From the NCBI GenBank assembly GCA_048213135.1, contig PS015097.1:424724-462407 (forward strand): 37,684 bases of DNA, given 5' to 3'. A program made the translations under genes and the position numbers. Of this stretch, positions 5,705 through 37,400 are shown one piece after another. The notes under the pieces are model-generated. The model saw only the letters and a program-made list of their open reading frames with translations, was not told the origin of the DNA and ran no database searches. The stretch comes from Reclinomonas americana ATCC 50394. Its lineage: Eukaryota. Position 1 is the first letter of the stretch. Each line of letters starts with the position of its first letter.

Positions 5705-5920
5705 AGAAAGAGAAGAGGGGCGAGAAGAGATATGTGGAGGAGGGAAAAAGTGATTGATTATACAATCACAGAAGAAAGGGAAGAAGAAGAAGGAGATATG
5801 TGGGGGAGGAAAAGGTGAGTATACAAGGATGATATCCTATGGAGAAAAGGGAAGAAGAGGGAGAAGAGATGTGTGGGGGAGGAAAAGGTGACTATACAAG
5901 GATGATATCCTATGGAGAGA
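5705..5920. repeat. ~72-bp tandem repeat, about 3 copies
   Basis: gagat(a/g)tgtgggggaggaaaaggtga…tatacaaggatgatatcctatggaga is repeated at ~5790 and ~5865, with a more diverged copy at ~5725. Confidence 0.75.
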
Positions 5921-10775: not shown

Positions 10776-13007
10776 TTATCGGAGGGCGCGTGGACCGAGT
10801 ACTTGACGACGCTCGCCATCGCGGATGGTGCCACCGAGCAGCTGGTTGTCTGTGAGGAGGAGAGTTGATTCGGAATTGGTTGTAGTCTGCGCGCAGCGTG
10901 GTGGTGGATGGACGCAACTGACATTCTCGGGCTCGACATTAGCACCGGCAGTGCGTGGAGGTGGTCGCGATGGCGCAGCTTCGCGTGGTTTGCTGAGCGC
11001 GAATGGCGAATCCTGTTCGCGTTTGGCGGCGCCCAGATCGACACCTGTATCCTCGGTCGACACACCGCCCGTGGTTTGCTGCTGCTGCTGCTGTTCCTCC
11101 AGCAAGTGCGCGGCGGTGACGATCTCGAGGATGCGCTCGCTCACGTCCTCGTCGCCGGGACGAATGGTGTGGTGGCGCGGCAAGTCATCATCTGCACACT
11201 ATGTTGTGAGCACTTAAGACAAGCCAAGGAAAGCACTCCAGCAAAACGCAACAAGCGACACGAGTAAGCTCTGTGCGCGGCACGCGGTTGACCACACCCT
11301 GTACTGCCTGGAAGAACTCGCCACTCGACTCCTCCTCGGCCTCGGCAGGAAGCACTGCGTCGCAGGTCAGACACGAGACAACAACAAAGAGACACGAAAG
11401 AGGGTCAACCAGACCAGACTCAATATCGAGCTCTCGCAGACGTGGCCAGGCGGTCACACGTGAGGCCAGTTCCTCCAGTCCGCTCAGGCCAATGACGTTG
11501 TCTGCGCACGAACACCAACTATTAAAAACATTGTGTAGGCTACATGACTTGTCAGCCAGCAGTGCGCAACTGGCCAAGTTGAGCACACGCAAGCCTGGCG
11601 CCTTGACCAGGGCGCGTACAACCGAGGTGACGCCCTCGGCCGTCAGGTGGCATGCCGACAGTCCCAACACCGAAAGTCGTCCATTGGCGGCGATCTTGCT
11701 CACCAGGTGCGACAGCTGCCGCACGGCATCGTGGCTATCGCCAATCGGTGTCTCTGCAATCGTGGGCGGTGCGCTGTCAGTTATCGTGATACGCGGTGTT
11801 CCCATTGTTCACACCACAAACCATCCAATCGCAGCTCCTCCAGGTTCACGGCATACTTCTCCAGCGTCTCGAACAGCTCCACAAAACCGCCGAGCTCCGG
11901 ATCGGTCTCGTCGGTAATGTCGGCACCCACCGCCTGCTCGCCGTTCATCGTCAGCACCGCAACAGAGGACAAGGCACGGGGGAGAGACAGAGCAAAGAAC
12001 CTTGAGTTCCACGCGTCGCAAGTGCGGCCAGTGTGGCACGGCATGCGCAAGAGTGGCCATACCGTCGGCGCCCACCGGATTCTCTGCGCGCACGTACGGT
12101 GAGCTGCTTCACAGAGGAAAAACACTGCTTGGTTCCACACACCCCTCCTCACCCTCAATGACCAGCGTCTCCACATGCTGCGCCTCGCCGAGGGCAGCCA
12201 CCAGGAACTTGGTGGCATCGGCATTCAGCGCGTTCCCGGCACCAATGGTCACGCCCTTCAACGCCGGCCACGTCGCCGTCACCGTGCCCAACCGACCCCA
12301 CTCGGTCCACGCCGGTCGCGCCCGTGCCGACACCTCAAGCCACTCCAGCGCCGGTGCCTTGGCCAGCGTGCTCACATCCAACGACGCCGCCGACGTGCGA
12401 GACAACAGACACGCCACGTCGGTGCGTTCCCACGACTGCCGACGCGCCCGCGCACTCGGCCACGCCAACACCGCGTCAGCATAGACCGCCACTCGCCGCG
12501 CCTCGCTCAGCTGGAACGAGCACACGTGCAGTGACAGACTGACTCCGCCCTGCAACTCCACAGCGATCTTCGGAGGAACTGTGCCGATGGCATCATCGTC
12601 GTCGTCGTCGCTGACAAGAGGAAGCTCTCTGATGGGGAACGAGTCATCATCATCATCATCATCAACGCGATCAACATCACTGTTGTTGCTGTTGTCATAG
12701 TCATAGTCGCTCACTGGCCACATGACCGATTCGATCGGCTCCAAAGGCGCGACGAAGAACGACTCAAACGCATTCATCTCCCCATTGTGAACATCGCTGA
12801 GGATGGTGTCCCATGCGTCGTTCTCACTGTTGTTGTTGTTGCTGATCGGGTCGGAGTCGCTCACATCCTCGTCGTTTGCACTGTGAACACGTGTCAGTCA
12901 TTGTGCGGGAAGATGAGGAGACAGACAAGACGCAACACGACGGTGATCGCGAACAGGAGGGAGACGACGACGAGGAGGAGAAGAAAGGGGGCGAGGAGCG
13001 CTCGCAT
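10776..13007 (-). CDS. Signal-peptide-bearing leucine-rich-repeat protein (RNase-inhibitor-like LRRs) with an acidic N-terminal region; about 9 exons
   Basis: Exon 1 encodes MRALLAPFLLLLVVVSLLFAITVV, joined in frame via GT|GTTGCG…ACAG|T to ANDEDVSDSD…. LRRs include WPALKGVTIGAGNALNADAT, VETLVIEENPVGADGMATLA, WPHLRRVELK, LEELRLDETPIGDS, LSVLGLSACHLTAEGVTSVV, LRVLNLANNVIGLSGLEELA and WPRLRELDI. Stop TAA at 10776. Confidence 0.8.
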
Positions 13008-13074
13008 GATATCGCCTCAAGTTCGTTGGTTGATGGTTCACGGGACAGGTTTACTACTTCGCGATCGAGCTCGA

Positions 13075-16000
13075 CTATCTGTGCGCCTGCGCTTGCTTGC
13101 GAAGTACCTGTGCTACACGCTGGTGGTTCCTGGATTCTGCCAGCTGCAGCGCCGTCATGCCGTCCTTGTCGGTCATGCTGAGCAGCGATTCCGGTTGTCG
13201 CGCCAACAAGCAAATCATGTCCACGGATTCGGGACTGCCGCGGAGAACGGCTTCGTGCAGCGGCGTGCGGCCGGCGGCATTGCGCACCGACACTGCTTCG
13301 TCGCTGATACCACGCCGTTCGAGCTCGCCGCAAAGCCATCGCACGACTTCGCGACAGGACACGGCCAGGTGCAAGCACGTGCTGCCGTCTTCATCGCGCT
13401 CCGTCAGCGCCTCGGCGGCTGCCTCGGCGGCCAGGAAGCGTGCAGTGCCTTCGTGTCCGCCCATGCATGCCATGGCGAGTGGCGATCGACCGTGACAGTC
13501 GCGCACGGCGAGCAGTGTCGGCATTTGCCGCACGATCCACGACACCAGCGATTGGTGGCCATTGAGAGCGGCGTAGTGCAGTCCCGTGGAGCCGTCCTTG
13601 GCGGTGAGTGCCAGTAGCGACGGATCGCGCAAGGCCAGTGAGCGAGCAAGCTGTGTGGTGAGAAGAGAAAAGGAGAGGATCTGAGATTGGTGATGCACAC
13701 TGGATGACAGAATGGCGCACGGAACCTCTTCAAATCCGTGCAGACAGTTCCGGTGAAAGTGCTGCGTTCAACAATCGATTGAGGATCCTGGAGAGCAGTG
13801 GGTACAGACACAGACACAGACACAGGCCGTACCGTGCGTCCCAGTGGATCCACGTCGCGGAGTTGATTCGGCCGCATTGTAGAGAGCCACTCTGCCAGTT
13901 CACTCTGCCACAGCGACACACCATCAATGGGGCATCACCACCACCACCGCTTCCATGATAATGCCCACTCACCTGTCCGACGGCATAATACAGCGGTGCG
14001 CGCCCGAATCGATCTCTCATTTCCACCAAATCCGGCAACTTCTCCACCAGCCACCGGCACAGCTCCACCGAGCTGCCGACATGGGCTGCCGTGTGCAGCA
14101 CCGTGCGTCCCTGCCGGTCACGCATCGACAGCAGCGCCGGCAATTCGTTCGCTAATGACTCGATCAGTCGCCGAGGAGCGCCGTCACGAATGGCCACATG
14201 CAGTGGCGTCTGTCCGGATCGACTTACGCTCTGCGCGTGGCGCCTGTCAGTGCGCAATACCTTGTGCGACAAACGGATGGAGAGAGGTACGCACCAAGAT
14301 CAGCCGCTCGCCACCAACATCGGTCAACCATCGCATCATGGCCTCGTCGCCCGTGCGCGCCGCCACGTGTGCCAGCGTGAAACTGTTGTCCTCGCGCAGC
14401 AAGATCGCCTCTGGCCACAACTCGATAGCCACCTGCAGACACCGCAAGTGACCGAGACGTGCGAGTGCATGAACCACCGTGCATTGCCGCTCTGCCGGTG
14501 TGCGCAGCAGCAGTGGTTGCACGAATGCCGGCCGGTCACGCTCAATATCGCCCCACCCGTCGAACGTGGCCAGCGCATGCGGTGCCAGGTCGCCCAGCCA
14601 CGCCACATACGCCTGGTACCGCACATCGTCGGGCCGATCACACCACGGCTGGATGCGCAGTATGAGGGACGCGACAGCCTTGTGTGCCAGTGATGCGTCT
14701 TTGGCTGCGCACGACGGTGCATGAGACGGGGGACGAGAGGAAGGAAGAAGAGCATTGCGTGAACCATACCAGTTGGATGCTCGCCCGCCAGGTCCGACAG
14801 CCACGACAGCGGTTTGAGAATGGCCGCGATAGCAGCCTGCACTGTCGCACGCGGCGCACCGCGCGTCTGCAACGCGTCCGCCAACATCGATGCCGCCAGG
14901 AACACCAGCTCGTCCAGAGTGCGGTCGTGTGGAGCATCCGCATACACCCCCATCTGACCAAATACGGCTCCCGCGCGACACGCAATCACCTGACTCAGCA
15001 GCTGGAACGGTGTCGGCATGGAGGTGAGCTGTCGCAGCTCCTGTGGTGCAGCAGAAGTAGCATGCAGTTAGTTTGTGAGCGGATTCACTCAACTGGAAGC
15101 ACATGGCACGCAACAGGCACTGAATCCCACAAGGCGCACAACTGGTACCACATGGCCCAGGCGAGTGCCTCCAGCACGTCAACAGACCGCGCAGCACAGC
15201 GGTAGCTCACATTTTCTGACGACATGAGCCACTCGGGAAGCGAGCGATGAAAGAACTCGTATGTCGGCGAGGCCGACTGTCGTGTCTGTGCCACCTTGAG
15301 CCACGGTTCGAGTGCTGCCGCGGTGAGAGGACGATGAGCATCGCTGCAAGTGAGTGCCTACAGCTTGTGGCGAAACGCAACAGCTCAACAGGCGATCAAA
15401 ATCGGCGGCCGAGGTGGTCGGCCGCAAGTATCGCATCACATCGTACAATTCGCGGTGCGACAGTGGAGTGGGGGTGCACAACACGGCTTCGAGTATCGGG
15501 CGCACGTCATCAAAGGGAATGCGCGTGTCACCTGGGACTATACCCGTCATTCCGGTCATTCCAGGCAGCAGACTCGCCGTCATTGTCGACCGCGTGTCGC
15601 CGACTGCCGAAGATGGTCGCTGTCGGAGGGGCGGGAATGTCAGCCACAGCGACACAAGACATGTGGCGGTAATTGCACGCAACAGATCCGGTCTCGGCGT
15701 TTGTTTTCACGGCCTCGTTGACAATGCGTCGGCAGGCTGCAACTCGGCACATGAGACTCTTTACGTGCGACGTGTCAACAGGTGAAACACAGACACTTGC
15801 CATTGATTTCGCCACGCTTGAACGACAAATGCTCGGTGAGCCAGGCAATGAAATCAGCGCGCACTTCTGCATCCTCCAGATCCAGTGGTCTGCACAGTAC
15901 TCAGTTTTTGTAGGAAGGAGAGAGTGCGCAACAAACAAGGCCAGCGCACCTCCATCCCTCTTCTTGCATGGCCACACGGAGCTGCTCGCATCGCTCGGCA

Positions 16001-19000
16001 GGCAGTGCCTCTGCATGCGCCGCCACGAACGTGTCGATTGACTGCAGTACGGATACCCCTCGGCCAGCAGCAGTACCAGCAGAGGCCATGCTTCCAGTCG
16101 CGGCGAGACGTGCCGAGGGTGGCGACGAAAGCGATGCACTGCCGTATCCACTCGGCGAATACACGCGCTCGAACGAGTGCATGTAGATGCTGCGAGACGA
16201 CAGGAATTGAGCCGCGATGGTCTCCTAGTGAATGAGTGTGCACACACACCACAGACCCCTTCAAGCCGCGAGGCAGTGCGCGCAGCGAGGCGAGATCGGC
16301 AAACTCGCCGGCGTGAATCCCGCGAATGTATTCGCGCGTACACAAGAAATTCCACTCGCTCTGCTCACACAACTGCGTGGCGGCATCCTCCAGCGTGCCG
16401 TCTGCCTACTCCCACCAGGCGACACAAATGAGTGCGAATGCAATGAAGGGAACATGCAACAGTCACACGAACCGGTGTCGATCGGTCCAAAAACATTCGC
16501 ATCCTCTCCTCCGAGCCCTCGCGCACCACGTGCGCCAGCAGGTCATGTCGACTCTCCTCGCGTTGCAGATTGACTTGGTAAGGAATGTAGAGGCGCGAGT
16601 GCACGGTCCGTCGGTCACGAGTGGTGCACACGATGCGCATCCACGACGGCAACTCGTCGGCACTGCAATCCGCACACACGTTGGCCACTGACACTGTTCA
16701 TCTGCCCTCCTCTGTCGTCGCCACCACCCACCTTTCTCGCAACAAATCCAAAATCGTGTCCCTCGCCCCCACATCGTCGCCCACCAGCTCGTCAAGCGCA
16801 TCGACAACAATCAGCCGACTGCTGTCGCCCTCGGCAGGCAAATCATCTAACCGCGCCAAACTGCGAAGCGGCAGCAACACTCCGCGTCGCCATGCATGCT
16901 CGTAGCCACTGCCACCCTCCGCATTCATGAGAGCCGTGCGCGCATCGGCGTCAGTGCGCAGCACTGTGGTGTGTCACGAATGAGACACCGCTCACTGTGA
17001 TGTCGCTTGCGGCTGCTCTCACCGTCACGATACTCGGGCATGGTGCGGCACAGCATTCCCGCAATGCTCCGCACAAATGCCGAAGTCTGGTTCACAGATG
17101 GAGGAGAGAGATATCAGAGTGATGTATGCAGAGTGAGACAGTCGAGGTGACGCAACGTCACGCAGTTTCGGATGCTGTGCCTTGCCCATGTGAAACGCAA
17201 TGACACGCGCACGACACCTTCCCAATGCCGTGGAGAACACGCTCCACGTCGACAACTCGCGAAGATCCTCCATCTGTTCATGCAGGGACAACAGAGTGTG
17301 TCAGAGAGACTCATATGGAACCGCGTTGTTGGTGTCGACAAAACTCCACGCTCAAAGCCAGTCCAAATACTGCGGCGTCCCACAATGGCGGCCACCACGG
17401 CCGTCTTACCAATGCCAGGATCACCGAGCAGCATCATGATTCGCTCTCCCTGCGCGGCAAGATGAGCGCAACAGGGATGGTGGCGCACCATTCTGTTCAC
17501 AGCTCACCGGTCGGCGTGGAGTGGCACAAAACTGATCAATCATATCAAACAGCCAGTCGCGGCCGACAAAACTCTCTGCCATGTCTTCTAGTGCACCCAA
17601 ATAGTCGAAGCATGCTGACGGCAAGTGGGTGTGCATCTAGAGTGCGGCGCACAGCACGTGTCAACCATGCATCGGGACGGAGACGGGTGATGGAAAACAA
17701 CAAAAAACGCACAAATCTGGCCATGGCGTCCTCTGTTAATTGTGAATCGGTGCCCGACGCTGCGCCCCATGCCTCGCCACTGCCACCGCCCGCTGAGCTT
17801 CGAGAGGGTGGTGTACTGGGTGGTGACTGCCCGCGCAATAGTAATGAGAGTGAGCGACCGCATGACAACTCAAAGAGAAACAATGCTCACCGGTAATCTG
17901 GGAATGGCCGATCGCTGTCGATTGGTGATGAACTGATGACTGAGGAGCTCGGCTGCCGTTGGTCGTTCCGCAGGGTTGCGTCGGAAGCACTGCAGTAAAC
18001 CTCAGTCATTGTGTGCTTGCGCGTGCACGAATACATGGATGCGCACGCACCAGCTGGAGAAAGTCGCGAACTTCTGGCGACACTTGGAAGGGGATGTCAG
18101 GAGTCTTGCCACCCTGCGTCACCTGGTACCAGATGGCCAGCGAATTGCTGCGATCGGCAAAAGGCACTGCGCGGTAGCAGCAATGTTACGAAGGAGCATC
18201 TGTAATTCCACACGCGGTAACGGCACGCAACTCTCGCCAGTCACCAACTCTAGCACGGTTGCACCCAGTGACCTGCATGACGACGGCGCAATAAGAGTCT
18301 CGCTCTCTCTTTCCCCTCTCACTTCGGCGACTCCCATACCAAATGTCGGCCTTGACAGTGTATCCGTTGCCGGGCGTGAGGACCTCTGTGATGATTGATT
18401 GGAGGTGAGCAGCGACGGTTGCACTTTTTCCTTCTAGTGAAGCAAACCTGGCGCCGCATAGGCGACAGTGCCCTTGCCGAGAGTGTTGGCCATCTGCGAC
18501 GCTCCCAGCACCTTGGAGCATCCGAAATCTGTATCAAGCACAGCGTAAGCACAAGACGGAGAGATAAACACAAGAGCAGTGCACCACGAACCACCGAGTT
18601 TCACCACACTGCCCTCGGGTGTGTGTGCAATCAGCACATTCTTTGGTTTCAAGTCGCCTGAAAGCAGAGATGAGAAGATGAGGGAAGGGAAGAGAGGGAA
18701 AGGGAAGAGAGGGAAAGGGAAGAGAGAGGAGAGTAGAGAGAGAGAGAGAGTTAGAGGAGAGGAGATGAGCACGAGAAGAGAAGCAAGGACGAGAGGAATG
18801 AGAGAGGCAAGACAAGAGAGACAAGGCCGAGAAAGAAGAGAGACAAGAGACGAGGGAAATGACAGAAATAAAAGAGAGGAGACAGACAAGAGAAGACCAC
18901 GAAGAGCAGACGCGTAGAGGAGACAAGAAACGCAAAGAGAAGAGAAAGGACAAGTGAGAATACCGCGACTGAGAACAGATACCAGGCAAGCGTGAAGAGA

Positions 19001-20634
19001 GAGAAAGAGAGAAACCAGCGAAACGCAACGATGAATAACGCCATTCTCATGCAAATACCGCAGGCCCTCGAGGATCTGCGCCGTGTACACCGCCACAATC
19101 TGCTCATTCATCGTGAACGATCGCTGGNNNNNNNNNNNNNNNNNNNNNNNNNNNNNNNNNNNNNNNNNNNNNNNNNNNNNNNNNNNNNNNNNNNNNNNNN
19201 NNNNNNNNNNNNNNNNNNNNNNNNNNNNNNNNNNNNNNNNNNNNNNNNNNNNNNNNNNNNNNNNNNNNNNNNNNNNNNNNNNNNNNNNNNNNNNNNNNNN
19301 NNNNNNNNNNNNNNNNNNNNNNNNNNNNNNNNNNNNNNNNNNNNNNNNNNNNNNNNNNNNNNNNNNNNNNNNNNNNNNNNNNNNNNNNNNNNNNNNNNNN
19401 NNNNNNNNNNNNNNNNNNNNNNNNNNNNNNNNNNNNNNNNNNNNNNNNNNNNNNNNNNNNNNNNNNNNNNNNNNNNNNNNNNNNNNNNNNNNNNNNNNNN
19501 NNNNNNNNNNNNNNNNNNNNNNNNNNNNNNNNNNNNNNNNNNNNNNNNNNNNNNNNNNNNNNNNNNNNNNNNNNNNNNNNNNNNNNNNNNNNNNNNNNNN
19601 NNNNNNNNNNNNNNNNNNNNNNNNNNNNNNNNNNNNNNNNNNNNNNNNNNNNNNNNNNNNNNNNTGATCCGACAGCGAACCGCCATTGCACAACTCCATG
19701 CCTACATCCCCACACAAATGAGCGCACAGATAGCAGAAGAATAAGAAGAGGATAATGATGAGAGGAAGAAGAGGAGAAGAAGAAGAAGAAGGAAGAAGAA
19801 GAAGAAGACCAACAACAAGAACAACAAGAACATGAAGAAGAACTGGAAGAAGGAGACGGAGGAGAGGAAGAAGAAGAACAACAAGAACAACAAGAACAAG
19901 AAGGAGGAGGAGAAGAAGAAGAAGAACAAGAAGAACAACAAGAAGAAAAGGAAGAACAAGAACAAGAACAAGAAGAACCAGAAGAACAACACCAACAAAG
20001 AGGACTGACATGACAAACCAATGAGAATAGAGTCGGGCTCACGTCGCACACCGACCAACTTGACGATATTCGGATGCATCAATTGCCGCAACAATGAAAT
20101 CTCCTCTGCAATCGCATTCATCGATGCCGCCTGGGTGAGCACAGAGAGTGAGAGGAGAGTGTGGGAGGTTTATGTGTGCAAGTATCATCATGTCACGAGT
20201 AACGTTTTGCACAGCTAATCGTTTCACAGCAATGATATCGCCTGCGCGGTCGCCGGAGATGACCATTGCGCGGAACACATCGCCTTTTGTGTGAGAGAAG
20301 AGCGAAAGAGAGAGTTAGAGAGCGAGGAAAAGAGTCATCAATCAGAGAGTGTGCGCACCGAAAGCTCCGCGTCCAAGACGATCCTTGACTGTGCGTGTGC
20401 GTGTGTGTGAGAAGAGAGAGCACAAGGAGAGAGAGAGAGAGAGTGAGTGCGAGGTCACGCGACGTTTTCCCCGATTTCTTTCGCGTAACTTTCCAGTTGC
20501 AAGTCGCCGGACTCACGCACTGTGGCGTCGAGCATTGCTGCGCCATCAGTGACACTGCTGTCTCCCATTGCTTTGCACAGAGACGGAAAACAATGATGTC
20601 CCAGTGTCCTTCGAAGGTGTTTCCCATCAATCAT
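13075..20634 (-). CDS. Multidomain Ser/Thr kinase (STE11/MAP3K-like) + STAND P-loop NTPase (NACHT/NPHP3-N/TANC-like) + winged helix + ~11 ankyrin repeats; ~30 exons, roughly 1,400-1,500 aa
   Basis: Kinase motifs: LGRGAFGDVF, IIAVK, EEISLLRQLMHPNIVKL, IHRDLKPKN, KLGDFG, GTVAYAAPE, ADIWSLG, RPTAAELL. In-frame phase-0 joins lead to FVGRDWLF, Walker A GDPGIGKT (17402-17425), Walker B LIVVDALDE (16788-16814), LPSWMRIVCTTR, LPRGLKGIY and FFHRSLPEWL, then ankyrins (TPLHVA, TVLHTAA, TGLHYAA, TPLHEAV…) to TAG at 13075. The start is ambiguous (ATG at 20634, 20627 or 20568), and a few kinase codons lie in the 19128-19664 gap. Confidence 0.88.
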
Positions 20635-20662
20635 TGTTGCTGCTGAGAGAAGCGCGCGCACA

Positions 20663-22024
20663 ATGCAAGTTGACTCTTCCGCATTTGAGCTTTCCTCTCG
20701 CCTGCTCAGCGAGTTTGCAGTGGGCGCAGTCTTCAAAGACCATGTGAGTGGGCATGCCTCGCTCTCTCTCACTCTCTGTGTCACTCACTCACTTTCAACA
20801 TGTGAGAGAGTGCAGAGTGCACCAGTGAACTCTGTGGACTTTTCGCGCGATGGATCGTGGTTGGTCACAGCAGGCGACGATCGAAGTGTGCGATTGTATC
20901 GCTGTGAGAATGCATCGTTGCGTTGTCTCTCTCTCACACACTCTCACACAAACTCATTGTGTCTGTCTGCACGCTCACCTCTGTGGCAGACTGGAAAAAA
21001 CCTCTCTGTGTCAAAAGTTCGGCTGTGAACACGTGCGATTCACACATCATCCGCAGAATGTCATTCATGCAAGCAGCAATGCGTGGGATCGTTGCGCGCA
21101 CACACACTCACTCACACGCCCACTCACTACTCTGTCTGACACAAGCGCGTGCAGACAGCATACGATACCTCAGTCTGTACGACAATGTCTACTTGAGATA
21201 CTTTCGGTGCGGCTTCTTGCTGCTGCACGCAGACAGCTCCGCCACTACACTCAGTGAGTGCTGACTGGTATTGTCGCAGTGGGCATCGCGATCGAGTCAC
21301 CAGCTTGGCCATGTCGCCGAAAGACGACACGTTCTTCTCTGCAGCGCGCGATCATACGGTGCTCATGTGGGATCTGCGGCAGTCCAAGTGCCAGGGCAGG
21401 ATTAACTTGACATCGTCGTACAATGTGGTGGGCTTTGATCCGACGGGCGAGGTGTTGGGTGTGGCGTCGTCGTCGTCGAATGCGTTGCGGTTATACGATG
21501 CGGCCAACATGAGCAGTGGGCCATTCGAGGTGGTGAACGTGGAGTGCCCCTCGGTCGAGTTCACGCACGTCAAGTTCTCCAACAATGGCAAGCTGATCAT
21601 GCTGGTCACCAATCAGTCGCTCATTATCATTCTCGATGCGTTTGAGTATCACAAGGTGCATCGAACCACCCCTGCTCGATCACCTCTCTTGTGCTTACTG
21701 CTCGTGCACGCGCAGCTGGCCGAGATCACCGACTACAGCAACCTGCAGAGTCTGGAGCTGGAGGCCTCGTTCACCCCGGACTCACGATACGTGCTCGTGG
21801 GCTCCGACGACGGTGCCGTGCGTGTCTTTGACGTGTCCGAGTGCTGCGCCGCCGCCGGCACCGAACGAGAAGGCCATGCACCTCCCATACTCTCGCCTTC
21901 GCTGGTCGCCACCTGGCAGGTGCACGCTGGACCCGTGCGCGCAGTCAAGTTCTCGCCGACGCACTTGCTGGCGGCCAGTGCGTGTCAGAATGTGGCCATG
22001 TGGATCCCCTCGTCAGCACTGTGA
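20663..22024 (+). CDS. WDR82: WD40 protein Swd2/WDR82 (COMPASS and PNUTS/CPF subunit); 6 exons
   Basis: Spliced product includes [101 protein letters not shown] and LEASFTPDSRYVLVGSDDG, all characteristic of Swd2/WDR82. Confidence 0.95.
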
Positions 22025-22102
22025 GTGGTGTATGTGTGTGTGTGGCAAAGAATGAACGGCGTCAAGTGTCCTGCGAGTTGTCACACTCTTTCGTTTTTGT
22101 CG

Positions 22103-24584: not shown

Positions 24585-24590
24585 AATGAC

Positions 24591-24773
<183 letters not shown>

Positions 24774-27296
24774 TAGTAGTACGTACGTACGTACGTACGT
24801 ACGTACGTACGGTACGTACGGTAACGGTAACGGTAACGGGTAAACGGTAAACGGTAACGGTACGGTAACGGTAACGGTAACGGTAACGGTAACNNNNNNN
24901 NNNNNNNNNNNNNNNNNNNNNNNNNNNNNNNNNNNNNNNNNNNNNNNNNNNNNNNNNNNNNNNNNNNNNNNNNNNNNNNNNNNNNNNNNNNNNNNNNNNN
25001 NNNNNNNNNNNNNNNNNNNNNNNNNNNNNNNNNNNNNNNNNNNNNNNNNNNNNNNNNNNNNNNNNNNNNNNNNNNNNNNNNNNNNNNNNNNNNNNNNNNN
25101 NNNNNNNNNNNNNNNNNNNNNNNNNNNNNNNNNNNNNNNNNNNNNNNNNNNNNNNNNNNNNNNNNNNNNNNNNNNNNNNNNNNNNNNNNNNNNNNNNNNN
25201 NNNNNNNNNNNNNNNNNNNNNNNNNNNNNNNNNNNNNNNNNNNNNNNNNNNNNNNNNNNNNNNNNNNNNNNNNNNNNNNNNNNNNNNNNNNNNNNNNNNN
25301 NNNNNNNNNNNNNNNNNNNNNNNNNNNNNNNNNNNNNNNNNNNNNNNNNNNNNNNNNNNNNNNNNNNNNNNNNNNNNNNNNNNNNNNNNNNNNNNNNNNN
25401 NNNNNNNNNNNNNNNNNNNNNNNNNNNNNNNNNNNNNNNNNNNNNNNNNNNNNNNNNNNNNNNNNNNNNNNNNNNNNNNNNNNNNNNNNNNNNNNNNNNN
25501 NNNNNNNNNNNNNNNNNNNNNNNNNNNNNNNNNNNNNNNNNNNNNNNNNNNNNNNNNNNNNNNNNNNNNNNNNNNNNNNNNNNNNNNNNNNNNNNNNNNN
25601 NNNNNNNNNNNNNNNNNNNNNNNNNNNNNNNNNNNNNNNNNNNNNNNNNNNNNNNNNNNNNNNNNNNNNNNNNNNNNNNNNNNNNNNNNNNNNNNNNNNN
25701 NNNNNNNNNNNNNNNNNNNNGAGAGAGAGAGAGGAAAGGGAGGCGAAGAATACAGGATTTAGGAGAAGGAGGAGGAGGGAAGGGAAATAAGGGGAAGGCG
25801 AACGAGAAGAGGTAGGAGGAGAAGGGGAGGACGAAGGGAAAAGGTGAAGGGGGAAGGAGGAGAGGGAAAAGAAGAAGAAGGTGGTGCAGCAGGAGAAAAA
25901 GAAGGAAAGGAGAAAGGCTGCAGATGAATTGGCCAGTATTGACCTCGTTGGCTGGAACTGAGAGAAACGAGTGCGAAGGAACGCTGTGATGAAGTCTGAA
26001 GGATGATTGGGAACGCATTGGAGAGTGCAGGCAAGTAGAATCGTGGACGAAAGAAGAGGAAGAAGAAGGCAAATGGGAAGATGAGAAAGAAGAAGGTGTT
26101 TGACACCCATTCTGGAACTGCAACGCCAAGCGCAACAGAGAGAAAAGTCTGAGGTCTGTGAAGCTTGACTGAGAATGCAGAGAGGGTGCTCGCAAGGTAG
26201 AACCGTGGACGAAGACGAGGAGGAAGAGTTTACGAAGAGAGAAAAATCGGCAAGGAATGCAGCTGCAGTGCTGAGGCCTGTGCAGAGATGGCAAGAGATC
26301 GGAAGAAGGAGTTGTTCGCCTGGCGCAACTGAGAGACAAAAGGCGGGAAGCTTGCAAACAGTGACTGACTTGGCCTGGAAGTGACAACTTGACTTCAAAG
26401 AAAGTCCTGCTACAATACAACACATTGACTCGAGCTAGGAATGAGCGAAGNNNNNNNNNNNNNNNNNNNNNNNNNNNNNNNNNNNNNNNNNNNNNNNNNN
26501 NNNNNNNNNNNNNNNNNNNNNNNNNNNNNNNNNNNNNNNNNNNNNNNNNNNNNNNNNNNNNNNNNNNNNNNNNNNNNNNNNNNNNNNNNNNNNNNNNNNN
26601 NNNNNNNNNNNNNNNNNNNNNNNNNNNNNNNNNNNNNNNNNNNNNNNNNNNNNNNNNNNNNNNNNNNNNNNNNNNNNNNNNNNNNNNNNNNNNNNNNNNN
26701 NNNNNNNNNNNNNNNNNNNNNNNNNNNNNNNNNNNNNNNNNNNNNNNNNNNNNNNNNNNNNNNNNNNNNNNNNNNNNNNNNNNNNNNNNNNNNNNNNNNN
26801 NNNNNNNNNNNNNNNNNNNNNNNNNNNNNNNNNNNNNNNNNNNNNNNNNNNNNNNNNNNNNNNNNNNNNNNNNNNNNNNNNNNNNNNNNNNNNNNNNNNN
26901 NNNNNNNNNNNNNNNNNNNNNNNNNNNNNNNNNNNNNNNNNNNNNNNNNNNNNNNNNNNNNNNNNNNNNNNNNNNNNNNNNNNNNNNNNNNNNNNNNNNN
27001 NNNNNNNNNNNNNNNNNNNNNNNNNNNNNNNNNNNNNNNNNNNNNNNNNNNNNNNNNNNNNNNNNNNNNNNNNNNNNNNNNNNNNNNNNNNNNNNNNNNN
27101 NNNNNNNNNNNNNNNNNNNNNNNNNNNNNNNNNNNNNNNNNNNNNNNNNNNNNNNNNNNNNNNNNNNNNNNNNNNNNNNNNNNNNNNNNNNNNNNNNNNN
27201 NNNNNNNNNNNNNNNNNNNNNNNNNNNNNNNNNNNNNNNNNNNNNNNNNNNNNNNNNNNNNNNNNNNNNNNNNNNNNNNNNNNNNNNNNNNNNNNN

Positions 27297-27383
<87 letters not shown>

Positions 27384-27627
27384 TGTGTTTATCTCCCTCC
27401 TGCTTTCCCTTGTCTCTCCTTCCCCTTCCCTCCCATTCTCTCTCCCTTCCTTCTTTCTCTCTCACCCTTCTCCATTCTTTCCATGCCTTTCCATTCTCTC
27501 TCTCTCTCTGTCTCCCTTCTTCCTTTCCCTCTGTCTCCCCTCTCTCCCTTCCCCCCCTCTCTCCTCCCTTCCCTCCCCTCTCCCCCTCCCTCCCCCCCTC
27601 TCTCCCTCTCTTCCCCTCTGTGTGCAG

Positions 27628-30689
<3,062 letters not shown>

Positions 30690-30794
30690 GTGAACGGGAA
30701 AGAGAGCAAGGAAGAAACGAGTAAGTGACGCCTCCTTTCACATTATTCTTCCCCAGCGAAAGGGAGGGAGAGGGGGGCGAGTATGAGAGAAAAT

Positions 30795-33112
30795 CTATAT
30801 GGTGGTGAGTTTGTCGACCAGCGCACGATACCGCACCGGGTCCTCGACGCGCAAATACCGCAGCATCTTGCGTCGCGAGTCCACGGCGCGCAGCAGTCCC
30901 CGTCGTGAGTGGACGTCCTTGGTCGCGCGGGAGCAGTGCTCGGAGAGGTGCTTGATGCGGAGGGTCCAGCGGGCGACTGAGTGGAGAGGGGGAAGGGGAT
31001 AAAGGGAAAGGGTGAGAGGGGGGAGGGGAAGGGGTAAAGGAGAGGATCAGAGAGTTTGTGAGAGTGCGTGAGAGCGGGAGGGTGAAATGAGGAGGATTGC
31101 GTGCGTGTGAGAGTGAAGGCATGGAGAGACGGAGAAGGAGGCAAAGTCAGGAAGGAGCGAGAGATAAGTGAGGAAGGGAGGTGACGAGATAGAGGAAAAG
31201 AGAGANNNNNNNNNNNNNNNNNNNNNNNNNNNNNNNNNNNNNNNNNNNNNNNNNNNNNNNNNNNNNNNNNNNNNNNNNNNNNNNNNNNNNNNNNNNNNNN
31301 NNNNNNNNNNNNNNNNNNNNNNNNNNNNNNNNNNNNNNNNNNNNNNNNNNNNNNNNNNNNNNNNNNNNNNNNNNNNNNNNNNNNNNNNNNNNNNNNNNNN
31401 NNNNNNNNNNNNNNNNNNNNNNNNNNNNNNNNNNNNNNNNNNNNNNNNNNNNNNNNNNNNNNNNNNNNNNNNNNNNNNNNNNNNNNNNNNNNNNNNNNNN
31501 NNNNNNNNNNNNNNNNNNNNNNNNNNNNNNNNNNNNNNNNNNNNNNNNNNNNNNNNNNNNNNNNNNNNNNNNNNNNNNNNNNNNNNNNNNNNNNNNNNNN
31601 NNNNNNNNNNNNNNNNNNNNNNNNNNNNNNNNNNNNNNNNNNNNNNNNNNNNNNNNNNNNNNNNNNNNNNNNNNNNNNNNNNNNNNNNNNNNNNNNNNNN
31701 NNNNNNNNNNNNNNNNNNNNNNNNNNNNNNNNNNNNNNNNNNNNNNNNNNNNNNNNNNNNNNNNNNNNNNNNNNNNNNGAGAGAGAGAGAACGAGAGAGA
31801 ACGAGAGACAGATAAGAGGAGAGATATGGAGAAGAACAGAATGAACGAGGATGAGATGTGATGGCAGGGAGAGTGAAGGAGAGCAGTACTGGACGAGACG
31901 TGCAGCTCGTCGGCGATGCCTATAGCTCATGCAGGAGCACGAGTGCAAAGCAACAAGCGCGGAAGGAGACAGAGAGAGAGAGAGAATGGAGAAGAACAGA
32001 ATGAACGACAAAATGCGATGAAGGCAGGGAGAGTGAAGGAGAGAAAGACTGGACGAGACGTGCAGCTCGTCTGCGATGCCTGTAGCTCATGCAGCAGCAG
32101 GAGAGCAAAAGCAACAAGCGCACAGAGAGAGAGAGAGGGACAGTGAACGACAAAGTGCAATGAAGGCAGCAAGAGTGAAGGAGAGAAGGCTGGACGAGAC
32201 GCGCAGCTCGTCGGCGATGCCTATAGCTCATGCAGCAGCACGAGTGCAAAAGCAACAAGTGCGGAGGGAGACAGAGAGAGAGAGAGAATGGAGAAGAACA
32301 GAATGAACGAAAAAGTGCAATGAAGGCAGGGAGAGTGAAGGAGAGAAAGACTGGACGAGACGTGTAGCTCGTCTGCGATGCTCATGCAGCAGCAGGAGTG
32401 CAATAGCAACAAGCGCGGAGAGAGAGAGAGAGAGAGAGAGACAGTGAACGAGAAAGTGTAATGAAGGCAGCAAGAGTGAAGGAGAGAAGGACTGGACGAG
32501 ACGTGCAGCTCGTCTGCGATGCCTATAGCTCATGTAGCAGCAGGAGTGCGAAAGAGCAACAAGCGCGGAGAGAGAGAAAGAGAGGGACAGTGAACGAGAA
32601 TGTGCAATGAAGGCAGCAAGAGTGAAGGAGAGAGGGCTGAACGAAGAAAGACAACAAAGGCTCTTTCTCCCCCTCCCTTCCCCTCCCTCTGCCCCTTCGC
32701 CACACTCAACTCTGCACCTCCGGACTCCCACAATCATTCGGCGCACGCGCAAACCGCTGCACCACCTCCCTCATCGCCGCCGCATTGCGCTCCGCCCGCC
32801 CCGCCGCCTCCAGCGACAACACCGCCCTCACACTCCCATCAATTGCCGCCAACGCCGATGACTCATGTGACAGAGCGGTTGAGACAACGCGCTCTGCGGC
32901 CGCCTCGCTGAGGTTGTAACGCGCGCGAGCCTCGGTGGCCAACGCCGACGAGGAGGTCGACATGAGGCGCCATGCCGCACCTCGTCCTCCTCCGCGCGCG
33001 CCACTTGATGTGAGCGGTGGGGAGGAGAGGCACGCCAGTACTGTGCGTGTGCACATGAGAGAGTGAGTGGCAGAGGCAATGAGAGTGTGTGTGCGTGACT
33101 AGTGCAATGCAT
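30795..33112 (-). CDS. MRPS15: Mitochondrial (bacterial-type) ribosomal protein uS15 with presequence; ~1.7-kb intron at 30977-32710
   Basis: …RFARAPNDCGSPEVQ(A|TC=I)ARWTLRIKHLSEHCSRATKDVHSRRGLLRAVDSRRKMLRYLRVEDPVRYRALVDKLTTI* matches uS15. The N-terminus is Ser/Arg/Gly-rich with a WRLMST cleavage-like motif. The start is either 33112 (with a short intron) or 33056. Confidence 0.9.
31820..32640. repeat. Intronic minisatellite with ~140-160-bp units, ~5.5 copies in two variant types
   Basis: GTGAAGGAGAG…CTGGACGAGACG(T/C)GCAGCTCGTC recurs at ~31875, 32035, 32177, 32337 and 32477, with a partial copy at ~32624. Confidence 0.9.
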
Positions 33113-33179
33113 TGTGTTGTGCGATGGAGATGCGTATATGCGTGCGTGTCAGTGCAGAGCAGGCGGTTGAGAAGGGGAG

Positions 33180-33860
33180 AGAGTGCGCGCACGTGTGTGT
33201 GCGACAGAGAGAAGTGCGACACGCACAGTGTGCGTGTCGACCAAAGTGCCTTTTCTTTTCTCTCGTCACACACTCGCGCACGCTCTGTGCTAGCCTCACA
33301 CACAAGTGCACACACACACACGTGCAGAGAGTGTGTGCGTGAGAAAGAAGTGTGACACAGAGTGTCGACCAAAGTGCCACTCATCTTCTCTCTTTTTCTC
33401 TCTTCTCACATACTCGCGCATGCTGCGTTCTCTCTGTGCCAGCCTCACACGTGCACACACACACACGCATGGGGAGAGTGTGTGCGTGTGAGAGAGAGAA
33501 GTGCGACTCACTGTGCGACAAATGCCTTTCATCTTTTTCTCTCCTCGCACACTCGCGCACGCTGCTCTCTCTCTCTCACACACAACCTTACACACGTATA
33601 TGCGTGCACACACACGTGCAGAGAGTGGCAGCAAGAGCAACCAGCGACCAAAGTGCCCTGCATGTCTTTTCTCTCTCTCTTCTCTTTTCTCTTTCTCCTT
33701 CGCGCTCTCGTCTCTCAACACCACACATACACATACAGGCGCGTACACACACACAGGTGCAGAGAGAGTGCGTGGCCAGAGACGAGTCACAGGCGGTGTC
33801 GATCAAAGTGCCTTTTTTTCTCTCTTTCTTTCTCCCACGCTCACTCGCGTCTTCTTCTCC
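33180..33860. repeat. Degenerate ~130-150-bp tandem repeat in the divergent uS15/HORMA intergenic region
   Basis: A CGACCAAAGTGCC-like core occurs at ~33238, 33366, 33516, 33646 and 33800, usually followed by a TC tract, CACTCGCGCA and CACACGTGCAGAGAGTG. Confidence 0.75.
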
Positions 33861-34465
33861 CTCTCTGCACACACACACGCATCGCACACACGCAAGAGAT
33901 GAACCTCGTCGCAACAACATCGATGCCACAGAGCGATGGCCACGCAACTTCAATTGGAGCCATCGATCGACGGGGGTCCATCGCACACACTACACAAAAA
34001 CGATCGCGTTTCTGCGACGATGATCATCGCGTTTGCCGTGTCGACGATGGAGACGATAATGTGCTGCCATCGATGTCCGTGCACGCATGCATGGGCGCAG
34101 TTGAAGTGCGGAGGCGATCTACCGCGTCGATCGGAGGCACTTTTACGTGTTTCTTCTTTGAGTGTGTGCGTGAGAGAGAAGACAACGTGAGGTGCGTTTT
34201 TGTTGGTGTTGCTGTTTTGCATGTGTGTGTGTGTGCTGTGTGTGAGGGCATGCATATGTGCATTGATCAATCAGTTTTTTTCCGAGAGACAAGTCACTTT
34301 CTCTCTTTCTATCTCCTTCTCTCCTTCTCTCGACTGCATGTGCATTGCCGCATTGACCACTGCCTTCTCCTTCTTCTCGCGTGAAAAAAAACTCGCGCTC
34401 AATCACGCGCACTTGAGCCCAATTGAAGTCAAAAGTGCCTCACTGTTATTTGTTGCACATGTCAG

Positions 34466-37400
34466 ATGGCCGCCGCTGCTTCTGCCACCATGCAAGCTGT
34501 CCGCGAGAAGACTGCGTCCGCCAGTATCACTGCCGCGCAGAGTGAGACTCTTGTGCGCAACCTCATGCGCACTTCGATCTCGTCCATTTGCTACCTGCGC
34601 AATCTGTTTCCCGACGACTGTTTCGAGGACAAGGAGCTGGCCAGTTGCGTCTGCGCGTGTGCTCGCTATATTATCTTCTTGTGATGAGAACGCCCACTCC
34701 TTCTCAGCTGTTGTCTTTTCCTCGAGAGTCCTCTTTTCTGCTCTCTTTTTTTATCGTTCTCACTGTCTCTTGCCGCTCTTGGTTGTCCGTTCCTCCCGTG
34801 CTCTTGTCACTCTCTCAGTCCTACCTGCCACTCCTTACTGTTTGCTCTCTGCACTCTTCTCTCTCTCTCTGCTACGTGCCAGTCCTTGCTGTTGACTCTG
34901 TGCTCTTGTTTCTTTCGTCGTTCCCACTGCTGTAGTTTCTGTCTCTTGCCGCTTGTTGGTTAACGTTCCTCTCGTGCACTTGCCTCTCTCTCTCCCTCGT
35001 GCCAGTCCTTGCTGTTGGCTCTCTTCTCTCATTTCTGGCGTCAATCAGCCTTGTGCCTGTGTCGCTCGTTCCCACTCTTTCCGTTTCTGTCACTTACCAC
35101 TCGTGCCCTTGTAACTCTGTTATCTGTCTCTGCTCTCGTTTCCACCAGTGTTTCCACTCCTTCGGATTCCGTCACAGTCGTGTGCCAGTGCCACTCTCTC
35201 ATTAATTCTTCTCCCCTCTCGTTTCTTCAACTGCGTTCCCCTTCTGTTTCTGCTCTGCCCGTCTGGGTGTTCTCTCTTCACTGTCTCCACTCACCGAGTC
35301 CCCACCCTTCGCTTTCTTCAACACGCCACCTTCCCACAGACTTGCAAATCAAGAGCATCCGCGGCCGCAACACCGAGGCGCGCCTGCTCATCGACTGGCT
35401 CGAGAAGGGCGTCTTCCACGCACTCAAGCTCAAGTATGTTGCGTGGCGGCGCGTTCAATCGCTTGACTTCTCCCTCTCTCTCCCTCTTCGCGCCTCACCT
35501 TCCGCACGCGCGCACAGCTGAAGACGCTCATCTTTGGCATCTACGGCGATCCGGGCCGCGAGTCGACCATGCTCGAGTCGTACTACTTTCACTTTCGGTA
35601 CTCGGAGGACGGCGTGGAGATGCAGAGTTGCGCCCCTTCAATCATGTTGCTCTTGCTTCTGTCTCTCTCTCTCTCATGCGTTGTCGGCGAACTCAGTGGA
35701 CCGCCAAGCGGCTGTGGTCGGGCAGTCAGCTCTGCCGCGGACTCGTGAGGAGATCCGCAAGTCGACGGTCATTGTGCTGCGCACGCTCATCTCGCTCATC
35801 CAGACGCTGCCGCCGCTGGCGGGTGAGTGCCACTCGCTGCTGCCACTGCGCCCTGTTGCTTCTCTTTACTGACGCGGACGCACAGACACGCGCTTCCTGA
35901 CGATGCGCCTGCTGTACTACGACGACATTACGCCGCCCGACTACGAGCCAGACTACTTCCGCGCCTCCTCCAGTGGTGCTTCGCGCAGTGCTTTTTATGT
36001 GCCCTTTTCCCCCTGTGTGCTTACACTGTTTGCGCAGACGATGCGGTGACCTTCTGTCGCCAGGAGGATGACCTGATGATTGGCGAAGTCCGCACACCGT
36101 ACCACGAAATGTCGTTGCGTGTGCGCACTCGCCCCGAGACCCTGGAGGTGACGCACGAGGCTATCCAGCACTCGCAGTCGACGTCGGTCACGGCTGCCCC
36201 GCCCCCTCCGCCACCGCCGCCGCCACCGCTAGCCTTGCAGGGTCAGTGACGAGCGGGGCTGTCTCTTCCCCCATTTTTCGTTCCCTCACTGCTTGTCCCC
36301 AGACACCACCATGGTGGCCATCCGACCGTCGTCGCCATCGGCGGGCGACGGACAGAGCAGTGCGTCGGGCGACGACCGCGACGGCGAGGAGCTCTTCTAT
36401 GCCACGGCGCTGGTCCAAGTGCTGACTGCGGTGCGGTATCGAAGAAGAAGCCGTGTTGTGTTGTGCTTTTCTTGCTGATTTAAGTGCAGGATGTGGTGAG
36501 CGTCAGTTCCCTGGCTCGTGCCCTCGATACCACGAGCTTTGCTGCGCGGGCAATCCTCAAGCGCATGGAGGACGAGGGCATTGTGGTGACCAATGGTCGT
36601 CGCGGTCTGTACCCTTTACCGTGCGCGCGCGCGCGCGCGCATTGCGGTGTTGTCGCGCGCTCACTCTTTGTCGCCCCAGGCATGCAAGTCATGCACAACG
36701 ACTGCACCAAGCGTCGCCTTGTCGAGGCGCGACGCGTGCTTGCACAGGCTCCGACGACAGTGCACGCTGCTGTGGTTCGCGACACACCGCCGGCACTCTC
36801 CTCCGACTACTTCAGCACCGGCCAGCACGCGCTGCTGATGCCGGCCCATGTTGCTGCGACGACGGCGACTGTACCGAGTGTCGCCGACATTGAGGAGCAC
36901 CTGGCACGCACCACTATCGACACGACGGCGGGGGCGGGAGTGGGAGTGCGTTGTTGCTGCTATTGTACTATTGTGCGGGTGGCTGTTGCTGACTGTCGCC
37001 GACAGATGAGCGCCTTCTCCGGCGTGAAGAATCGCCGGGTGTTCCCGGGTCAGCCAATGTCGACTCCACCGCTCTCCGCCACAGATGTCGACGGGGTGGT
37101 GAGTGCAACGCCGGTGGAGTCGCCCAAGCTGTTTGCGCCCGTCCCCGTCGGTGAGTGAGCCTGGTGGAGTGTGTGCTGTGTGTGGTGTGCAGTGACGACT
37201 AATTTCGGAAGATATTGCAGCTGCAGCTGCTGAAGTGCATTCGCCTTTTCCGGTGGTGGTGCCCATGGACGATGGCGACGAAACGGACGCGGAGGACGAG
37301 CTTGTCGGCGGTGCGTACCGCGCTGATCCCTGCGTCTTGCACACCCGGCTGACACACTGCACAGAACCGGCGCCTGTTGTGCAATGCACGCCACCTCCGC

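Follow-up and report, generated by a model that had tools for sequence, protein, structure and literature searches.

Can a single set of ordinary GT-AG introns be opened by two different donor motifs? The question is raised by a 37,684-base stretch of Reclinomonas americana ATCC 50394 DNA (contig PS015097.1, positions 424,724 to 462,407 of the forward strand; hereafter, the window), which is GC-rich, is interrupted by 10 runs of N and is densely occupied by eukaryotic genes with short introns. Recognition of the donor by the U1 small nuclear RNA (snRNA), through its 5′ end, is one of the best-conserved events in gene expression. A first-pass annotation of the window had reported 18 introns that begin with GTTGCG and one that begins with GTTGAG, always after an exon base other than G. 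All 19 sites were found in the sequence at the reported positions, 18 as H/GTTGCG and one as A/GTTGAGT (H, any base but G; the slash marks the cut). Splicing was deduced throughout from reading frames, protein profiles, alignments and splice signals, and on these grounds a displaced second donor class tied to exons that do not end in G is very probably real.

A donor motif displaced by one base

We refer to H/GTTGCGY donors, including the GTTGAG variant, as class 2, and to G/GTG(C/A)GY and other donors as class 1, or the main class. The working set comprised 44 introns, 20 of them class 2 (the 19 reported sites and one at 28375) and 24 others. Intron totals are approximate: our gene models hold about 60-65, and the roughly 83 introns traced by hand in the first pass were not reproduced. 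Class 2, with about 19-20 of 60-83 introns, therefore makes up about 23-31%, or roughly a quarter, of the introns in the window.

At the 19 sites the base before the cut was A (seven), T (seven) or C (five) and never G, and position +7 was T or C in all 18 GTTGCG sites. Per position, class 2 (n = 20) had T at +3, G at +4 and G at +6 in 20 of 20 introns, C at +5 in 19, and T or C at +7 in 17 and three, respectively. Class 1 (n = 24) had G at +3 in 17, C or A at +4 in 21, G at +5 in 23 and T or C at +6 in 22. As the first-pass annotation had proposed, the class-2 heptamer G-T-T-G-C-G-Y corresponds to the G-G-T-G-C-G-Y heptamer of the main class after a one-base slide into the intron; the two classes have a U-G-C-G-Y core in common, which lies one base farther from the cut in class 2.

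GTTGCG occurs 44 times on both strands of the whole window. GTTGCGY occurs 33 times, compared with 13.51 ± 3.64 times in 100 dinucleotide-preserving shuffles, none of which reached 33. Gene orientation was set by open frames, Pfam matches and homologues, and within the 19,725 bases of oriented gene regions GTTGCG was found in 28 sense and three antisense copies, making it the most strand-biased 6-mer outside low-complexity words; for GTTGCGY the ratio was 25:2 (binomial P = 5.6e-6). Ordinary donor words were unbiased (sense to antisense, GTGCGT 14:16 and GTGAGT 10:19), which we attribute to antisense copies arising in a CT- and CA-rich sense strand. The 33 GTTGCGY copies consist of the 18 reported donors, the further candidate donor at 28375, two copies within other introns (15932 and 17472), four sense exonic copies (22270, 23991, 30170 and 36114), two antisense copies inside genes and six beyond the gene models. 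The two intronic copies are both T/GTTGCGC on the minus strand and lie inside ordinary introns (15949-15890 and 17507-17450), 17 and 35 nucleotides (nt) downstream of a G/GTG.. donor; their use would shift the frame, and they could be unused, vestigial or alternative donors.

Evidence that the sites are donors

The genes that carry the sites were delimited from frames, Pfam matches and homologues as follows.

10.7-20.4 kb, minus strand: an LRR gene and a very large kinase/P-loop STAND/ankyrin-repeat gene
20.6-24.6 kb, plus strand: WDR82 and an NDOR1-type diflavin reductase
27.7-30.7 kb, plus strand: a RINT1/TIP20-type gene
33.0-30.8 kb, minus strand: an organellar-type uS15 gene
From 34.5 kb, plus strand: a HORMA-domain gene

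Protein evidence fixes seven of the 19 junctions: 19029, 32710, 35438 and 34644 by Pfam, 20917 and 21091 by alignment, and 18231 by kinase motifs. The first pass had anchored junctions on conserved kinase HRD, HORMA and uS15 motifs, and Pfam profile coordinates place four junctions, three of them to the residue and 34644 to within about two positions. Spliced WDR82 has four junctions, and its alignment to five homologues is gap-free at each of them. Eight further introns are needed for an open frame (11252, 12936, 15114, 15381, 15683, 17156, 29142 and 35627). The remaining four (10918, 11570, 22970 and 23835) are in-frame and stop-free and were recognized by their signals, in keeping with the earlier remark that a few of the introns were of this kind.

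In a motif-blind ranking, all GT...AG alternatives that kept the frame and lay no more than 30 nt from the junction were considered at 19 sites, namely 18 of the reported ones (32710 was omitted because of an N run) and 28375. The class-2 donor was the best choice at 11 of the 19 and among the top three at all 19; another GT scored better at eight, and at two sites there was no frame-compatible alternative at all. The alternative GTs almost never had the main-class motif or a G at −1. A local motif-blind score separated the strands 111 to 1 at S > 15, but it is too blunt for single sites and wrongly favored the exonic G/GTTGCGC at 22270. A donor-blind gene finder placed six of 19 donors exactly, and self-trained gene finding with one donor model returned 35-51 introns with wrong boundaries, many class-2 introns being missed or shifted. 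In non-conserved parts many junctions are ambiguous, with several frame-compatible solutions.

The class-2 introns are listed below (coordinates, strand, donor, length, phase and evidence; "rank" and "best" refer to the motif-blind ranking).

10850 to 10918, minus: A/GTTGCGTC ... CACAG/AC, 69 nt, phase 1; in-frame, stop-free, signals only; top pick of five frame-compatible GT donors, with which the donor-blind gene finder agrees
11192 to 11252, minus: T/GTTGCGTT, 61 nt, phase 1; frame-shifting, read-through stop at +62; rank 3 of 4 frame-compatible combinations
11502 to 11570, minus, LRR gene: A/GTTGCGCA, 69 nt, phase 1; in-frame, stop-free, local score S = 20.4; by reading rather than by a tool, the spliced product retains the 28-residue LRR spacing
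12881 to 12936, minus: T/GTTGCGTC, 56 nt, phase 2; frame-shifting, stop at +40, best of eight combinations; less certain because the upstream exon is hydrophobic and of low complexity
15041 to 15114, minus: T/GTTGCGTG, 74 nt, phase 0; read-through stop at +27; chosen by the donor-blind gene finder
15315 to 15381, minus: T/GTTGCGTT, 67 nt, phase 1; frame-shifting; a rival model with T/GTTGAGC at 15389 and acceptor 15344 (46 nt) is likewise class 2
15620 to 15683, minus: T/GTTGCGTG, 64 nt, phase 0; frame-shifting, best of three frame-compatible donors; part of the forced single-frame model described below
17087 to 17156, minus: C/GTTGCGTC, 70 nt, phase 0; frame-shifting, best of three donors, S = 15.6
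18167 to 18231, minus, kinase domain: A/GTTGCGTG, 65 nt, phase 1; frame-shifting; the spliced kinase domain runs unbroken through HRD (HRDLKPKN), DFG, APE and DIWSLG to the profile end
18658 to 19029, minus, splitting the HRD motif: C/GTTGCGTT, 372 nt, phase 1; Pkinase profile match 91-121 ends with the last full codon, profile position 122 falls on the split codon and the following exon takes up at 123
20917 to 20989, plus, WDR82: C/GTTGCGTT, 73 nt, phase 2; gap-free within five residues of the junction against five WDR82 homologues (P0001-P0005)
21091 to 21154, plus, WDR82: C/GTTGCGCG, 64 nt, phase 1; gap-free against P0001-P0005, the split codon giving His as in P0002 and P0003
22970 to 23032, plus, NDOR1 linker, putative: A/GTTGCGTT, 63 nt, phase 2; in-frame, stop-free, signals only, outside profile coverage; the weakest of the 19 and doubtful, because its interior is G/A-rich, unlike the other introns
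23835 to 23900, plus, NDOR1 FAD/NADPH linker: A/GTTGCGTC, 66 nt, phase 1; in-frame, stop-free, sole frame-compatible GT donor
28375 to 28434, plus, RINT1, candidate beyond the first-pass list: T/GTTGCGTG, 60 nt, phase 2; in-frame, stop-free, intron-like interior; a rival G/GTATTT at 28384 ranks slightly better
29142 to 29197, plus, RINT1: C/GTTGCGTG, 56 nt, phase 1; frame-shifting, stop at +74, single frame-compatible GT-AG combination; the upstream exon matches RINT1_TIP1 69-143
30977 to 32710, minus, organellar-type uS15, variant donor: A/GTTGAGTG, 1734 nt (573 N and a tandem repeat among them), phase 1; Ribosomal_S15 profile match 3-21 reaches the exon end, the split Ile codon is 22 and the next exon continues from 23; read-through stop at +2
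34644 to 35339, plus, HORMA: A/GTTGCGTC, 696 nt, phase 1; HORMA profile match 1-33/34 resumes at 37/38-69 in the next exon; stop at +38
35438 to 35517, plus, HORMA: T/GTTGCGTG, 80 nt, phase 0; HORMA profile exactly contiguous, 69 to 70
35627 to 35696, plus, HORMA: A/GTTGCGCC, 70 nt, phase 1; frame-shifting, best of five combinations; HORMA profile resumes about eight positions on, across a variable stretch

Further variants, each with a rival solution, are found at 15389 (GTTGAGC) and 16743 (GTTGCGA). For the in-frame intron at 23835, we compared the spliced and unspliced linkers with those of eight solved diflavin reductases. The spliced linker is 1-8 residues shorter than that of six of the eight chains, and the unspliced one is 14-21 residues longer than those; the other two chains have longer linkers. 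The comparison leans toward splicing and is not decisive. The earlier statement that class-2 donors open three of the longest introns was borne out (372, 696 and 1734 nt, the last with its 573 N). Much of the 1.7-kb uS15 intron is filled by a tandem repeat at 31805-32644, with periods of 141 and 302 nt (about five and 2.4 copies), whose AGCTATAG/GC units misled the gene finder into micro-exon calls.

Some regularities were observed on the exon side as well. Twelve of the 19 class-2 donors are in phase 1. Among the 20 class-2 introns (the 19 and 28375), five split an AAC codon (A/.../AC) and eight are followed by an exon that opens with AC. Six exon bases are identical in three class-2 pairs (11570 and 34644, TGGCCA; 10918 and 23835, ATGTCA; 32710 and 35627, TGCAGA), and 10918 and 23835 agree over about 10 exon and eight intron bases. 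At least three such hexamer pairs arose in 0.12% of 20,000 random draws of exonic hexamers ending in a base other than G, and none was seen among the 24 ordinary donors.

Dependence on the last exon base

In the 44-intron set, the exon ended in G at none of 20 class-2 donors and at 22 of 24 other donors (Fisher P = 2.6e-10). The association was also seen in the 16 best-fixed junctions, which comprise seven class-2 sites and 20744, 21207, 22464, 18591, 18447, 18339, 18050, 22734 and 23351, with 22734 and 18050 placed not by profile coordinates but by an uninterrupted open reading frame and the reading of motifs. Within this subset a class-2 donor followed none of eight exons ending in G and seven of eight exons ending in another base (P = 0.0014). 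Relative to background, G at −1 was depleted in class 2 (0 of 19, P = 0.002-0.007).

The first-pass annotation had held that the motif is used only when the last exon base is not G. The dependence on the exon end itself stands, as the two Fisher values above indicate; the word "only" is partly trivial. Exons ending in G accept loose donors (GTTCGT, GTTTGC, GTATGG, GTATCT, GTAAGT, GTCAGT and GCAAGC), and since they tolerate almost any GTNNNN, the lack of GTTGCG after G is to be expected. The informative direction is the opposite one: exons that do not end in G almost always carry GTTGCGY. The unshifted exceptions noted earlier persist, T/GTGAGT at 20744, which is fixed by alignment, and A/GTGCGT at 30272.

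Only two sense copies of GTTGCG follow a G. These lie at 22270 and 23991 on the plus strand, within conserved coding motifs of NDOR1, and evidently G/GTTGCGC is not spliced at either; though only two in number, these copies fit the idea that the motif cannot be used after a G. Among the main-class donors there is a perfect AGG/GTAAGT at 24374 and one profile-fixed GC-AG donor, G/GCAAGC of the intron at 22464-22536 (plus strand), which Flavodoxin_1 places between profile positions 66 and 67. Further, ambiguous GCA(A/T)G donor candidates were seen at 22151 (plus), 15800 (minus) and 17010 (minus).

Position of the cut and type of intron

The cut falls at the GT, as had been argued from the site at 15381. 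Moving both boundaries of that intron by one base creates a TGA, and cutting at the GT gives the Ile codon at 32710 and the His codon at 21091. A cut one base inward (G/TT...AGN) was excluded by the same stop, by the profile-consistent Ile and by the His found in two of five homologues.

In their bodies the class-2 introns resemble the others. All 20 start with GT and end with AG, and the median length was 68 nt in class 2 and 63 nt in the other introns. Interior composition was A.18, C.32, G.20 and T.29 in class 2 and.17,.30,.21 and.32 in the others, the G/A-rich 22970 being an exception to this pyrimidine-rich make-up. The acceptor had C at −3 in 19 of 20 and 20 of 24 introns, respectively, and by unscored inspection CTNAY branch-like motifs lie 10-30 nt upstream of the 3′ end in both classes. 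An all-against-all blastn comparison of 43 intron interiors returned short CT-rich low-complexity matches only, no stronger for class 2 than for the rest; the best non-self match was 18 nt long (E = 6e-4). With an ordinary body and no interior similarity beyond such matches, these introns thus qualify neither as minor-type introns nor as mobile-element copies. A U12-type or second-spliceosome origin was rejected on the donor GTTGCGY and, by inspection, on the lack of a separate branch box and on 3′ parts like those of the other introns, and a mobile-intron family was rejected because class-2 interiors are no more alike than those of ordinary introns.

Pairing with U1

Pairing was modeled with RNAduplex, bulges allowed, against the textbook U1 5′ end as printed in Tan et al. 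(2016; PMC4856993). Class 1 paired in the canonical register with a mean duplex energy of −7.0 kcal/mol. The class-2 mean was −1.2 kcal/mol, with no consistent register and the canonical pairing never consistently chosen. A stable U-bulged helix was predicted by RNAduplex for the single GTTGAG site (−7.2 kcal/mol) and for none of the 18 GTTGCG sites. Removal of the extra T improved the class-2 mean from −1.2 to −2.6 kcal/mol, and this deletion never weakened predicted pairing.

The base at +5 is instructive. C and A stand at 19:1 there in class 2, compared with 11:10 at the equivalent main-class position (Fisher P = 0.0036), even though textbook U1 would form a far more stable duplex with the A form (−7.2 vs. 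−1.0 kcal/mol). Since C is kept where A pairs better, the reader of the motif should have G opposite that C. We scanned all 16,384 7-mers at U1 positions 3-9. A hypothetical ACGCACC guide gave −13.3 kcal/mol for GTGCG donors and −7.3 kcal/mol for class 2 by way of a displaced register; a hypothetical ACGCAAC guide gave −11.5 kcal/mol for class 2 in the normal register and −4.2 to −8.0 kcal/mol for the main class.

These calculations bear on the first-pass suggestion of shifted or bulged pairing to standard U1, which, with no stable register, a mean of −1.2 kcal/mol and C preferred over A at +5, did not hold up as a sufficient explanation. In the model, a plain mammalian-style shifted or bulged register with textbook U1 appears insufficient, and a standard U1 is unlikely to read class 2 in this way. 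The other suggestion made at that time, a variant snRNA or specificity factor, is now more likely than before.

A proposed displaced register and its alternatives

The mechanism that we consider most likely is a guide that pairs in a displaced register. Where coding constraints leave a last exon base other than G, class 2 would replace the loose main class G/GTG(C/A)GY. The first G of the intron would occupy the slot normally held by the last G of the exon, with cleavage still before the GT, and the donor-reading RNA (U1, later U6) would engage the same U-G-C-G-Y core with its register displaced by one nucleotide. The occurrence of the shared core one base farther from the cut supports this idea. 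Such a guide would differ from textbook ...ACUUACC..., having G-C in place of the textbook U-U, or would be one of at least two U1 variants, the one with that change. The sequence shows that the sites exist, how abundant, strand-biased and dependent on the exon end they are, and where the cut lies; all that concerns the RNA reading them is inferred. The joint claim, that ordinary U2-type GT-AG introns truly use the H/GTTGCGY sites as 5′ splice sites and that a guide reads them in this displaced register, has, in our judgment, about an even chance of being correct.

Several observations weigh against it. Splicing of the class-2 introns is deduced from sequence, four of the 19 are in-frame and stop-free, the main-class set was partly chosen with motif-aware models, many junctions are ambiguous, and all data come from one 37.7-kb window. 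G/GCAAGC and the AGG/GTAAGT at 24374 fit textbook U1, with U-U at positions 5-6, better than they fit ACGCACC; the same holds for class-1 donors outside the main words (−6.2 vs. −5.5 kcal/mol) and for GTGAG donors (−9.5 vs. −7.4 kcal/mol). The better fit of GCAAGC, GTAAGT and many GTGAG donors to the textbook end makes two or more U1 types a real possibility. Any single guide is predicted to pair with H/GTGCGY at least as well as with H/GTTGCGY, and energy alone would offer no explanation for the extra T. Nor does a pure slot-for-slot displacement predict what is seen, G at −1 in none of 19-20 class-2 introns against G at the equivalent position −2 in six of 24 main-class introns. Selection of the extra T and avoidance of G at −1 are unexplained by any pairing model.

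The strongest competitor, which we regard as a tentative possibility, is a dedicated second guide, a variant U1 or other small RNA with ...ACGCAAC..., that reads GUUGCGY in the normal register within the same U2-type spliceosome. Near-invariance at seven positions is what a site paired along its whole length would show, textbook U1 offers the motif no useful complementarity, the energy of ACGCAAC is among the best of the 16,384 guides, and the exon base is not relied on, as in U12-type donors. On the other hand, such a guide would make the identity of the class-2 core with the displaced main-class core a coincidence, and it leaves the absence of G at −1 unexplained. We also know of no organism that relies on a variant U1 for a quarter of its introns. 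A related proposal would place two parallel donor codes in one U2-type spliceosome, with G-ending exons recognized by conventional U1 and other exons recognized through GUUGCGY by a U1 variant or a U1-bound factor; this, too, we consider conceivable and rather doubtful.

Less probable is a protein of the U1C, LUC7 or similar type that binds GUUGCGY and recruits or stabilizes standard U1 snRNP on exons lacking a terminal G. RNA-binding proteins typically recognize motifs of 5-7 nt, textbook U1 pairing is negligible in every register, and the preference for C at +5 opposes U1 pairing. The position of the motif is fixed, however, with its first base right at the cut; that it matches the displaced main-class core speaks for the reader of the main class; and no candidate protein is encoded within the window.

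We consider it equally unlikely that a completely standard U1 reads class 2 through a +1 shift or a bulged U at +2/+3, as at rare human donors but far more commonly. The arrangement of GU, an extra U, a normal core and a non-G exon end does fit the shifted and bulge +2/+3 registers in Tan et al. (2016; PMC4856993), and the GC-AG and GTAAGT donors of the window fit standard U1. Against this stand predicted energies of about −1 kcal/mol in no consistent register, where the same paper lists a model shifted human site at −6.5 kcal/mol, and the use of GTTGAG (−7.2 kcal/mol) once compared with 19 uses of GTTGCG.

That GTTGCG is just a frequent word near exon ends, the real donors being other nearby GT or GC sites missed in hand tracing, is very improbable: the four in-frame, stop-free introns, the many junctions with several frame-compatible solutions and the better-ranked GT at eight of 19 sites would allow it, but it is contradicted at seven sites (three placed by profiles to the residue, one to within about two, two more by alignment and one by kinase motifs), by the 25:2 strand bias and the shuffles, and by alternatives that almost never have the main-class motif or G at −1.

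Other features of the window

The minus-strand region 13075-20283 was forced into one gene, a single uninterrupted frame with 25 introns that encodes kinase, P-loop STAND and ankyrin-repeat segments. An N run at 19128-19664 swallows part of its kinase domain, and at several of its junctions two or three solutions are equally good. The WDR82 exon had 20 homologue matches, the best at 38-40% identity (one with a Cyanophora-style EukProt identifier, and Galdieria); the kinase-STAND exon and the NDOR1 exon returned no homologues in the protein-collection search, and neither the organism's own proteins nor its lineage are represented in that collection. A metagenome scan found no relative, and a protein atlas queried for relatives gave generic WD40 clusters only. 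No snRNA gene was detected in the window by Rfam at gathering thresholds. Regions 1-6350 and 24590-27700 consist of long GA/CT- and CA-rich low-complexity tracts interrupted by N runs; no convincing gene was found in them, and their GTTGCG copies show no strand preference.

Comparison with known systems

Among the matches listed in full-text searches outside subscription journals and supplements, we found no description of a GTTGCG or GUUGCG donor class; those listed were primers or unrelated uses. What sets the window apart is a displaced, near-invariant donor in about a quarter of the introns that appears unable to pair with textbook U1. Such a genome would be a natural system in which to study how the site of cleavage can be set without reliance on U1 pairing, how the handover from U1 to U6 copes with an extra nucleotide and whether U1 variants partition the introns of a genome. 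Gene finders with a single donor model will mis-annotate genomes of this kind.

The closest parallel is with human donors that use shifted or bulged U1 registers, which were reportedly described at atypical 5′ splice sites by Roca and Krainer in 2009 and by Roca and colleagues in 2012. As in those donors, class-2 sites have an extra nucleotide after the GU, an exon end that is usually not G, a cut at the GU and pairing displaced by one. Tan et al. (2016; PMC4856993) put all validated types of non-canonical human register at 1.5% of 201,541 donors, bulge +2/+3 accounting for 68 sites, and give −6.5 kcal/mol for their model shifted site. By comparison with that 1.5%, class 2 takes up about 23-31% of the introns in the window and is near-invariant over seven positions. 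Moreover, human shifted and bulged sites gain stability with standard U1, whereas class-2 sites do not.

In U2-type donors, exon position −1 and intron positions +4 to +6 also compensate for each other (the "seesaw," or maximal-dependence, relation), which normally strengthens the usual consensus. Class 2 resembles it in that donors without an exon G have a much stronger intron motif while G-ending exons are permissive. It differs in that the motif does not improve the match in the usual register but repeats the consensus one base farther in, keeping a mismatch-type C at +5.

Introner-like mobile introns likewise come as many introns with an identical start, but class-2 interiors have only short CT-rich matches in common, as ordinary introns do. 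With U12-type introns class 2 shares a rigid intron-side donor motif and a last exon base that is not relied on; its donor is unrelated to the U12 consensus, and the branch-like motif, acceptor, length and composition are those of the other introns in the window.

Variant U1 snRNAs with altered 5′ ends are known from work on vertebrates and insects, and a variant of this kind would give donors that do not pair with standard U1 a guide of their own. To our knowledge, no variant U1 serves a large, sharply defined fraction of introns, and the finding could prove categorically new if a dedicated guide RNA exists. Two donor codes in one spliceosome, if true, would amount to a second system of 5′ splice-site recognition, neither U1-canonical nor U11/U12.

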